DNA of 64,000 nucleotides, from IMG/VR virus record IMGVR_UViG_3300043395_002432, positions 1 to 64,000 of that record, one strand, 5' to 3'. The notes under the pieces are model-generated. The model saw nothing but the letters and a program-made list of their open reading frames with translations, was not told the origin of the DNA and did not search any database. The position numbers and the translations under genes are program-made. This DNA comes from a virus. Of the stretch, positions 22,625-23,135 are shown piece by piece; positions within the stretch are counted from its first letter, which is position 1, and each line of letters begins with the position of its first letter.

Positions 22625-23090
22625 GAGAAGCCCCGCTGGAGACCAGGGGGCTTTCTCGAAATTGAGTGAAGGCCGGGTGGGGGAGTTATCCCCTAAGGGC
22701 TTCTTTGCCCGACCTTGCCCGTTCCTTAGCGCATGGATCACCTCTTGGTGGCGAATGAGGGTTTGACGTCGAGCGGATCGCTTTAGCGCCTGTCCGCTTC
22801 AGGCGAGCTGATCGGGTGGCTCCCTTTCCTCGGCTCGGAACCGGGCAGTCGTCACTCTGCACGGCGTCGTGGGGGGGAGCCTATGGGTCTCTCCACTGGA
22901 GTCCCGATCAAACCCGGACTTCAACCATGTCACACCTTCCTTTTCATTCGGGAATGCCCCGTTTCGTGGTCTTCAAACCCTCCTATCTGCCGCAGAGAAA
23001 TCTATTTCCCTACAGGCGCGAAGGCGGGCAACAATTGAGCGAGTCGGCTGACCGCCTGTGAAAGCCCACTCGGCGGCGCTCTCTCGTCTC
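22625..23090 (-). ncRNA. large structured non-coding RNA candidate (~470 nt)
   Basis: no credible ORF; nested long-range helices; TATCTT at 23097-23102; terminal hairpin 22625-22657. Confidence 0.55.
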
Positions 23091-23135
23091 CCTCACAAGA
23101 TAGCCACCCCCTCGCGGGGGTCTACTCGAACACTG

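Follow-up and report, generated by a model that had tools for sequence, protein, structure and literature searches.

The DNA between the genes of a zinc-ribbon protein and a 193-amino-acid (aa) protein of an uncultured freshwater phage raises the question as to whether a long intergenic gap gives rise to a functional RNA and, if so, which type of RNA this might be. The phage is represented by the 139-kb IMG/VR record IMGVR_UViG_3300043395_002432 (estimated completeness 68%), of which the first 64 kb, here called the window, were analysed. In a preliminary description of the locus, a highly structured orphan RNA of ~470 nucleotides (nt) with its own promoter and a terminal hairpin had been proposed, either a new large non-coding RNA (ncRNA) or a very divergent RNase P-like ribozyme. 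The first of these proposals was borne out, since the gap (positions 22575-23135, 560 nt, between minus-strand genes) is non-coding, is conserved above the level of synonymous sites, was found as RNA at a depth of 17 and belongs to no Rfam family. It is well supported that a conserved, expressed ncRNA resides here, which most likely is encoded on the minus strand and most likely extends from about 23005 to 22620.

Coding capacity and accumulation of RNA

The only close relative of the locus is L026, a metagenome locus whose 193-aa protein is 94% identical. Over 3 kb, L026 and the window are collinear, with a DNA identity of 87%. Within the gap, the longest open reading frame (ORF) comprises 93 aa on the minus strand and 81 aa on the plus strand. 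All ORFs are short and unconserved, and the two longest gave no Pfam match. Since the ORFs of 44 aa and 81 aa are broken in L026, one-letter insertions or deletions (indels) separate the two sequences and the substitutions within the gap lack codon periodicity, we concluded that the gap core codes for no protein.

Nine public sequencing runs contain the stretch, three of which may stem from the source samples; four of the nine (X4, X5, X7 and X8) were aligned to positions 18000-27000. X4 is a metatranscriptome from a study other than that of the likely source samples, X5, X7 and X8 are DNA runs. The metatranscriptome contains a fraction of 0.61 of the sampled words of 22575-23135. It yielded exactly two contigs over 18000-27000, the first of which (358 nt, depth 17.4) covers positions 22673-23005 without any difference; the second, at a depth of 8.8, begins at 26881 and extends into the gene of a 137-aa protein. 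The genes flanking the gap gave no X4 contig. By themselves, contig-free parts of 18000-27000 in X4 are no evidence of silence and were used in contrast to the DNA runs only. In the latter, scattered pieces at depths of 2-8 were found throughout the region, and DNA carry-over would therefore not result in a single block of 333 nt at depth 17. Thus, the gap sequence accumulates as RNA far above the neighbouring genes.

Conservation and distribution of the region

Between the window and L026, the core of the gap (22673-22940) exhibited 93.3% identity with 18 substitutions and three one-letter indels over 268 columns. The hairpin and tail following it on the minus strand (22620-22672) were 92.5% and the 5′ block (23030-23135) 88.7% identical, while the flanking genes for the sliding clamp, the zinc-ribbon protein and the 193-aa protein showed identities of 87.5%, 87.9% and 93.1%, respectively. 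Changed sites were significantly rarer in the core (18 of 268) than at the third codon positions of the three genes (119 of 691; Fisher p=1.3e-5). The comparison indicates that the gap sequence is kept under selection between these two related phages.

One segment behaved differently. At 22941-23029 (minus strand), 89 nt are swapped in L026 for 83 unrelated nt, and an alignment of the two gave 56% 'identity' with 32 gap columns. In both phages the segment is predicted to fold alone into a long irregular hairpin and a small hairpin, and the end of the RNA contig at 23005 adjoins the apical loop of the long one. Beyond it, the conserved 5′ block with a TATCTT sequence and a hairpin (23030-23105, minus strand) has a 6-nt insertion in L026 and lies outside the RNA contig.

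Further copies were sought among relatives of the 193-aa protein, comprising 16 IMG/VR loci (41-60% identity) and 87 metagenome stretches, 80 of which were kept. Among the 80 metagenome loci L026 alone showed DNA similarity to the gap, and the 16 IMG/VR loci had none (nhmmer without match, best blastn E=0.61). Five whole IMG/VR records disclosed only chance matches of 13-35 nt and were not hit (0/5) by R1, a covariance model of the best-kept domain, which over 81 sources (330 kb) recognised only the window and L026. Exact-pattern scans gave no further copy in the viral contigs of IMG/VR, where one pattern matched four unrelated gene starts, and 0 matches in 185,579 species genomes; blastn of 22400-23300 against phage isolates gave no match either. 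Within the phage the RNA sequence is single-copy, and neither the core nor the variable segment has a paralogue or a complementary stretch elsewhere in the 139 kb. The comparison with Rfam suggested in the preliminary description (RNase P, GOLLD, ROOL, introns) left the region empty at E<=10: in the window only 22 tRNAs were found, without matches to GOLLD, ROOL or group I/II introns, and a comparison of 22400-23300 and of 22665-22945 with all Rfam models at this threshold gave 0 matches. ARAGORN detected no tmRNA. The region is therefore a new orphan RNA of which two sequences are known.

The length of the gap was surveyed in 53 of 96 loci, i.e., those in which the sequence reaches about 930 nt or more upstream of the match; several of them are one and the same contig present in both collections. 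More than 203 nt ahead of the homologous gene were found in L026 (206 nt) and L098 (364 nt) only, and the gap of L098 is AT-rich and unrelated to the RNA region. Since nearly all of the 53 relatives are without a long gap, the RNA region is an addition specific to a small lineage.

Predicted structure

All six helices and pairings named in the preliminary description were recovered at the positions given there. Long-range duplexes connect 23021-31 with 22705-16 (-16.3 kcal/mol), 22973-82 with 22757-66 (perfect 10 bp, -15.0 kcal/mol), 22903-10 with 22809-16 (perfect 8 bp, -12.4 kcal/mol) and 22875-81 with 22818-24 (perfect 7 bp, -13.7 kcal/mol). A hairpin at 22787-22805 has an energy of -10.3 kcal/mol and its loop can pair with 22772-77 (-9.3 kcal/mol), while a crossing helix GAAGTCCGGGT/ACCCGGCCTTC (22912-22922/22668-78) comprises 10 of 11 pairs (-14.8 kcal/mol). 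The long-range helices exist in the window, but the two outermost, whose 5′ arms are located in the swapped segment, were not kept in L026: with the aligned letters of this relative their energies change from -16.3 to -8.2 and from -15.0 to -1.7 kcal/mol, respectively, although looser alternatives exist. The hairpin CGCCTG/CAGGCG (22772-22805 including the loop partner TCCGCT at 22772-22777, minus strand) is kept, and its loop pairing shrinks from six to four pairs.

The whole gap folded on the minus strand with z=-2.55 (2 of 100 shuffles as good). To call the RNA highly structured was an overstatement, as the RNA-supported part proved ordinary against shuffles, but two sub-domains do stand out, namely 22805-22913 (minus z=-2.83, 0/200 shuffles; plus z=-1.61, 14/200) and 22620-22720 (minus z=-3.67, 0/200). 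For the former, RNAalifold on the two sequences and the fold of the window alone agree in a nested three-way-junction domain (22805-22913, minus strand). It is composed of a 9-bp closing helix (TTGATCGGG/CCCGATCAG), a 4-bp hairpin (CTCC/GGAG) and a 7-bp helix (GGCTCCC/GGGAGCC) around further hairpins, one of 8 bp with an 8-nt loop and one of 3 bp.

In an alignment of 130 columns, containing the junction domain and the next hairpin of the window and L026, all 37 pairs are standard in both sequences. Out of ten changed columns, eight are unpaired and two form one compensatory exchange of U-A to C-G. By one further change in L026, a C-G pair predicted for the window alone gives way to a bulge. 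The compensatory pair and the intact junction helices, coming from two sequences, are suggestive only. The DNA runs X5, X7 and X8 contributed near-identical pieces only and no variants for a covariation analysis. In the global fold of the window alone, 12 of 22 L026 changes affected unpaired positions on the minus strand (p=0.075) and 8 of 22 on the plus strand (p=0.51).

Strand, ends and transcription signals

On the minus strand the region is closed by a GC-rich hairpin at 22623-22657 (-23.4 kcal/mol) with a C/U-rich tail behind it; L026 has exactly the same hairpin. The terminal hairpin of the preliminary description was thereby confirmed, and it likely represents a terminator-like 3′ end. 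The RNA contig ends at 22673, about 50 nt before the foot of this hairpin, which weakly hints at random-primed cover fading near the 3′ end. At the opposite side, beyond 23005, the contig continues in plus-strand direction with 25 adapter letters, AGATCGGAAGAGCACACGTCTGAAC. The adapter directly behind 23005 implies that fragments ended uniformly at this position and that no covered path led onward. We take these letters to be the read-1 adapter, which in libraries of the dUTP-stranded type presumably marks the 5′ end of minus-strand RNA; if X4 is of this type, 23005 may be the 5′ end of a minus-strand RNA, a weak hint. The minus strand is also hinted at because the neighbouring genes are all encoded on it, because the junction domain folds better on it and because the L026 changes affect unpaired positions more often on it than on the plus strand. 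Gene direction, folds, L026 changes and adapter together are weak hints as to the strand and ends of the RNA.

The findings fit an RNA of about 390 nt that is transcribed as a unit of its own from the minus strand and that would run from 23005 to about 22620 and end at the GC-rich hairpin. Its 5′ end may be generated by a cut beside the apical loop of the strain-variable hairpin, and a precursor may start near 23090. The length of ~470 nt given previously was not confirmed: the contig covers 22673-23005, and about 390 nt is our best estimate. The conserved 5′ block at 23030-23105, whose fold on the minus strand is unremarkable (z=-0.32), could be part of the precursor or a control region.

Possible transcription signals are located upstream. 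The TATCTT sequence at 23098-23103 is conserved in L026, and 31 nt separate it from the TTGACA box closest to it. A tandem box, CTTGACACGTTCTTGACA, is situated at 23134-23151 (minus strand) and belongs to 27 such sites in the 139-kb record with the consensus CTTGACAnGTTCTTGACR; elsewhere on the minus strand a -10-like hexamer follows after ~21 nt, here after 31. It is possible that this box is a promoter or activator site. Several minus-strand tandem boxes are followed ~21 nt on by a TAnnnT-like hexamer and then by a ribosome-binding site (RBS) and an ATG, and many plus-strand boxes lie directly after hairpins that end minus-strand genes. Within the gap, a hairpin ACCCCC-GCGA-GGGGGT (23107-23122, minus strand) begins 14 nt past the stop codon of the zinc-ribbon gene and likely is the terminator of this gene.

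Resemblance to RNase P RNA

The assumption of a very divergent RNase P-like ribozyme acting on the tRNAs of the phage had been derived from the crossing helix, in which GAAGTCCGGGT can pair with ACCCGGCCTTC across 240 nt with one mismatch where P4 of RNase P RNA has a bulge, and the phage indeed carries 25 tRNA genes according to ARAGORN (22 according to Rfam), all on the minus strand at 10.4-17.1 kb. However, the bacterial RNase P models RF00010 and RF00011 did not match at E<=10 anywhere in the 139-kb record, and RF00373 gave four matches of 4-6 bits, all away from the region. As controls, RF00010 and RF00011 matched 11 of 14 genomes and the three RNase P searches overall 11 to 13 of 14.

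Nor is the P4-like helix conserved. In L026, GAAG of the 5′ arm is changed to TACG and the last C of the 3′ arm to T (ending ...CTTT). None of these changes, two on the 5′ side and one on the 3′ side, is compensated; the outer pairs are lost and the pairing energy weakens from -14.8 to -10.8 kcal/mol. The 3′ arm ACCCGGCCTTC (22668-22678, minus strand), which would pair with 22912-22922, has a local partner, AAGGTCGGG (22705-22713), that is fully conserved in L026, and the X4 RNA contig stops inside this arm. Complementarity of the RNA to the 25 tRNA genes was no better than that of shuffled sequences (11 of 20 shuffles as good), so that the suggested role in the processing of unusual tRNAs found no support. 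We therefore rejected an RNase P-like ribozyme on account of the missing model match, the lost outer pairs and the tRNA complementarity at shuffle level; this reading is already largely refuted and now appears extremely improbable. No phage-encoded RNase P RNA was named in the titles obtained by a literature search, which was too narrow to show its absence from print.

As to the tRNA cluster itself (10468-17113, minus strand), two ARAGORN calls have odd anticodon loops and several of the tRNAs are 85-95 nt long.

Short reading frames within the RNA

Two mini-ORFs with RBS-like sequences are located on the minus strand of the RNA. Mini-ORF 1 (22908-22928) consists of the RBS-like AAGGAAGGTG, 6 nt, an ATG with five codons and a TGA; it would encode the peptide MVEVRV in the window and MVYVRV in L026, and its stop codon lies within the closing helix of the junction domain. 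Mini-ORF 2 (22726-22734) is preceded by AAGAGGTGATCC and reads ATG CGC TAA (ATG CTC TAA in L026). In L026, both ATGs and both stops are kept and one codon is changed in each.

These frames led us to consider a minigene or ribosome-decoy RNA, whose two strong RBSs with a 6-codon and a 2-codon ORF would tie up ribosomes or tRNAs. In its favour, the 18-mer AAGGAAGGTGTGACATGG serves as RBS plus ATG of genes in all four unrelated phage contigs containing it, a second site, GAGGTGATCC plus ATG, is well spaced, and none of the three ATGs in the RNA opens an ORF longer than six codons, the two mini-ORFs having their starts and stops kept in the relative. However, two RBS-plus-ATG sites against 0.42 expected are not significant (P=0.06), the two strains disagree in codon 3 of ORF 1 as well as in codon 2 of ORF 2, and the sites are partly located within predicted helices. 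Moreover, such a function would leave the conserved junction domain unexplained, and we consider it quite improbable. Phage lambda has two-codon minigenes. A decoy of the kind considered would follow the principle of toxic, tRNA-sequestering minigenes (PMC2490762). The likeness to minigenes lies in a phage transcript with an RBS, an ATG, two to six codons and a stop, whereas the mini-ORFs studied here are embedded in a large, conserved, structured RNA and their number is not significant.

Possible functions

Of the functions considered, we tentatively favour, at somewhat less than an even chance, a stable phage RNA that acts in trans by means of its conserved junction domain and invariant loops. 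As a guess, these elements might serve as a binding scaffold for a protein or for the translation machinery and not as a catalyst of tRNA 5′ processing, and the closing hairpin may additionally limit read-through into the 193-aa gene, whose product is predicted to adopt a GNAT-like fold. Because the gap is lineage-specific, with only L026 and L098 exceeding 203 nt, the RNA is regarded as a separate unit. Several results weigh against a trans-acting RNA. No partner protein is known, and homologues outside L026 were found neither in IMG/VR nor in the metagenome loci or species genomes searched. The RNA evidence stems from one run and from assembled contigs, which are no proof of the strand, the ends or the level of an RNA. 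On the minus strand, the 333 nt supported by RNA fold no better than shuffled sequence (z=-0.43, 30 of 100 shuffles as good), and overall the plus strand folds slightly better (z=-2.99 for the whole gap, -1.79 for the 333 nt). Within the junction alignment, 36 of the 37 pairs are invariant across the two sequences and 244 of 500 shuffles reach the observed score, and in the window-only minus fold the L026 changes break six pairs and keep three. A scan of 21500-24500 for promoters of the sigma-70 type gave 0 promoter-like sites. To ascribe to the RNA a promoter of its own was thus an overstatement; the TATCTT sequence and the TTGACA box are present but oddly spaced, by 31 nt. Likewise, a terminator scan flagged the closing hairpin on neither strand, the required U-tract being absent.

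As the main rival, rated as possible but rather unlikely, the RNA would belong to the GNAT-like 193-aa gene as its long 5′ leader and act in cis, similar to an attenuator or riboswitch. Transcription would start upstream, the structured core would sense a signal, possibly ribosomes on the mini-ORFs, the hairpin 22623-22657 would decide on read-through, and terminated leaders would pile up. The arrangement is suitable for this: only 48 nt separate the end of the hairpin from the ATG at 22574, between them lies only a palindrome occurring genome-wide (22599-22612) and no promoter-like site, the RNA covers the leader and not the 193-aa gene, and the RNA carries the two mini-ORFs with RBS-like sequences. 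Yet in a crude test, alternative pairing to the 5′ arm of the terminator reached -21.1 compared to a shuffle mean of -18.6 (fraction 0.14), and pairing to the 3′ arm was at a shuffle fraction of 0.53. Rfam disclosed no riboswitch or leader match, the two RBS-plus-ATG sites do not significantly exceed chance (P=0.06), and the survey of the 53 relatives argues that the gene does not need a leader. It is less likely still that the RNA as such has no function, being a stable decay intermediate of read-through, or that the conservation is due to a role of the DNA, e.g., through control sites or a replication origin. The ordinary fold energy of the RNA-supported part, the fact that two sequences are known, the position beside replication genes (among them the clamp gene) and the repeat array at 21383-21980, and the one swapped segment, as seen at mosaic joints, would all agree with that. 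On the other hand, substitutions in the 268 nt are less than half as frequent as at third codon positions, the L026 changes avoid the junction helices and include one compensatory pair, and the RNA, at a depth of 17, is above the single neighbouring gene for which a contig was obtained.

An RNA from the plus strand, antisense to the direction of the genes, would profit from the slightly better folding and from the closing hairpin, which is terminator-like on this strand too. In that case, however, the hairpin would precede rather than follow the covered part (22673-23005), the L026 changes would break ten pairs and keep two in the window-only plus fold, and the junction domain would fold less well (z=-1.61 versus -2.83 on the minus strand). 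As the direction of the adapter also fits the minus strand, provided that the library is of the presumed dUTP-stranded type, we judge a plus-strand RNA to be very improbable. Finally, the RNA might resemble a guide RNA, consisting, after the cut at the apical loop, of a strain-specific, largely unpaired 5′ part of ~65 nt (23005-22941) and a conserved, structured scaffold (22940-22620). This doubtful idea, to which we give little credit, is based on the findings that only the variable segment is swapped between phages that are 93% identical here and that the RNA contig starts inside it. If true, a protein of the phage or its host would be docked by the scaffold, whereas the choice of a nucleic-acid target, differing between strains, would fall to the variable part. 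Targets of the variable segments were found neither in the phage's own genome nor in the phage collection (best E=0.2 to 10).

Comparison with known RNAs

To our knowledge, few structured RNAs of several hundred nt are encoded by phages, and almost none of them has a known function. With bacterial RNase P RNA (RF00010, RF00011) the RNA shares a size of several hundred nt, a pairing recalling P4 and a tRNA-rich genome. It differs in lacking a model match, in a P4-like arm that is unconserved despite 93% identity and in that no other conserved RNase P region was recognised by any tool. GOLLD and ROOL are likewise phage-borne, multi-helix RNAs of several hundred nt whose function is unknown and which occur in genomes with tRNA clusters; unlike them, the RNA is smaller, has no Rfam match (neither at E<=10 nor at the gathering score), is separated from the tRNA cluster by about 5.5 kb and is known from two sequences. 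Phage T4 encodes small stable RNAs, abundant and without known function, inside its tRNA transcription unit. The RNA described here is similar in being phage-encoded, apparently stable, abundant and carried by a phage with its own tRNAs, but the T4 RNAs are shorter and part of the tRNA unit, whereas the present one is separate and beside replication genes. Leaders of the T-box type (RF00230) resemble it as long structured RNAs with a hairpin end just upstream of a gene, the terminated form of which would be abundant. Differences are the absence of an Rfam match, no antiterminator above shuffles and the lack of a leader in nearly all relatives of the gene.

The candidate thus rests on three independent supports, since it is non-coding, under selection and abundant in an environmental RNA library, and it belongs to a phage that invests heavily in RNA biology with its 25 tRNA genes. 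It provides a concrete RNA to seek in metatranscriptomes. The negative result matters as well, in that the attractive resemblance to RNase P does not hold.

Genomic neighbourhood

The genes around the gap are all arranged on the minus strand in the order clamp, zinc-ribbon, gap 22575-23135, 193-aa gene, a repeat-filled gap and a 576-aa gene. The clamp gene (23561-24847) encodes a DnaN-type sliding clamp with three Pfam clamp domains. The 112-aa zinc-ribbon protein is encoded at 23136-23474, with the stop codon at 23136-23138, and the 193-aa protein at 21993-22574, with its ATG at 22574. A nuclease-like neighbour was not recognised near the RNA gap.

The 193-aa protein belongs to no Pfam or PHROG family. 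A search of the ESM Atlas gave leads below 0.9 only, and a sequence search of the PDB yielded nothing below E=0.029. Its AlphaFold model (pLDDT 91.6) revealed a GNAT-like fold resembling RimI, GCN5 and AAC(6′), and Foldseek matches to GNAT acetyltransferases were obtained at E about 1e-4 and TM values of 0.43-0.49. This predicted fold gives no explanation of the RNA. Relatives of the protein are widespread in large uncultured phages, among them one of 735 kb (29% identity).

The gap between the 193-aa and 576-aa genes measures 670 nt. A repeat of ~55 nt fills positions 21383-21980 next to the 193-aa gene in three direct and two inverted copies. In comparison with L026 this gap is 83.8% identical with 115 gap columns and is thus far less conserved than the RNA core.

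The palindrome at 22599-22612, located between the closing hairpin and the 193-aa gene, is a copy of a 14-bp element of the CGAATTCGAATTCG family, which has 91 sites in the whole record, those in the window being spread over positions 900-63263. We do not regard it as the promoter of the 193-aa gene. Copies are often found at a distance of 9-25 nt ahead of start codons on the minus strand, two tRNA genes are preceded by a copy at 2-5 nt, and a further copy (23448-23461) falls within the 5′-terminal part of the zinc-ribbon ORF. The gene of the 137-aa protein (26738-27151, minus strand), into which the second X4 contig runs, is without a family assignment; by our own reckoning from the length of the record, this contig ends 2 nt before its ATG.

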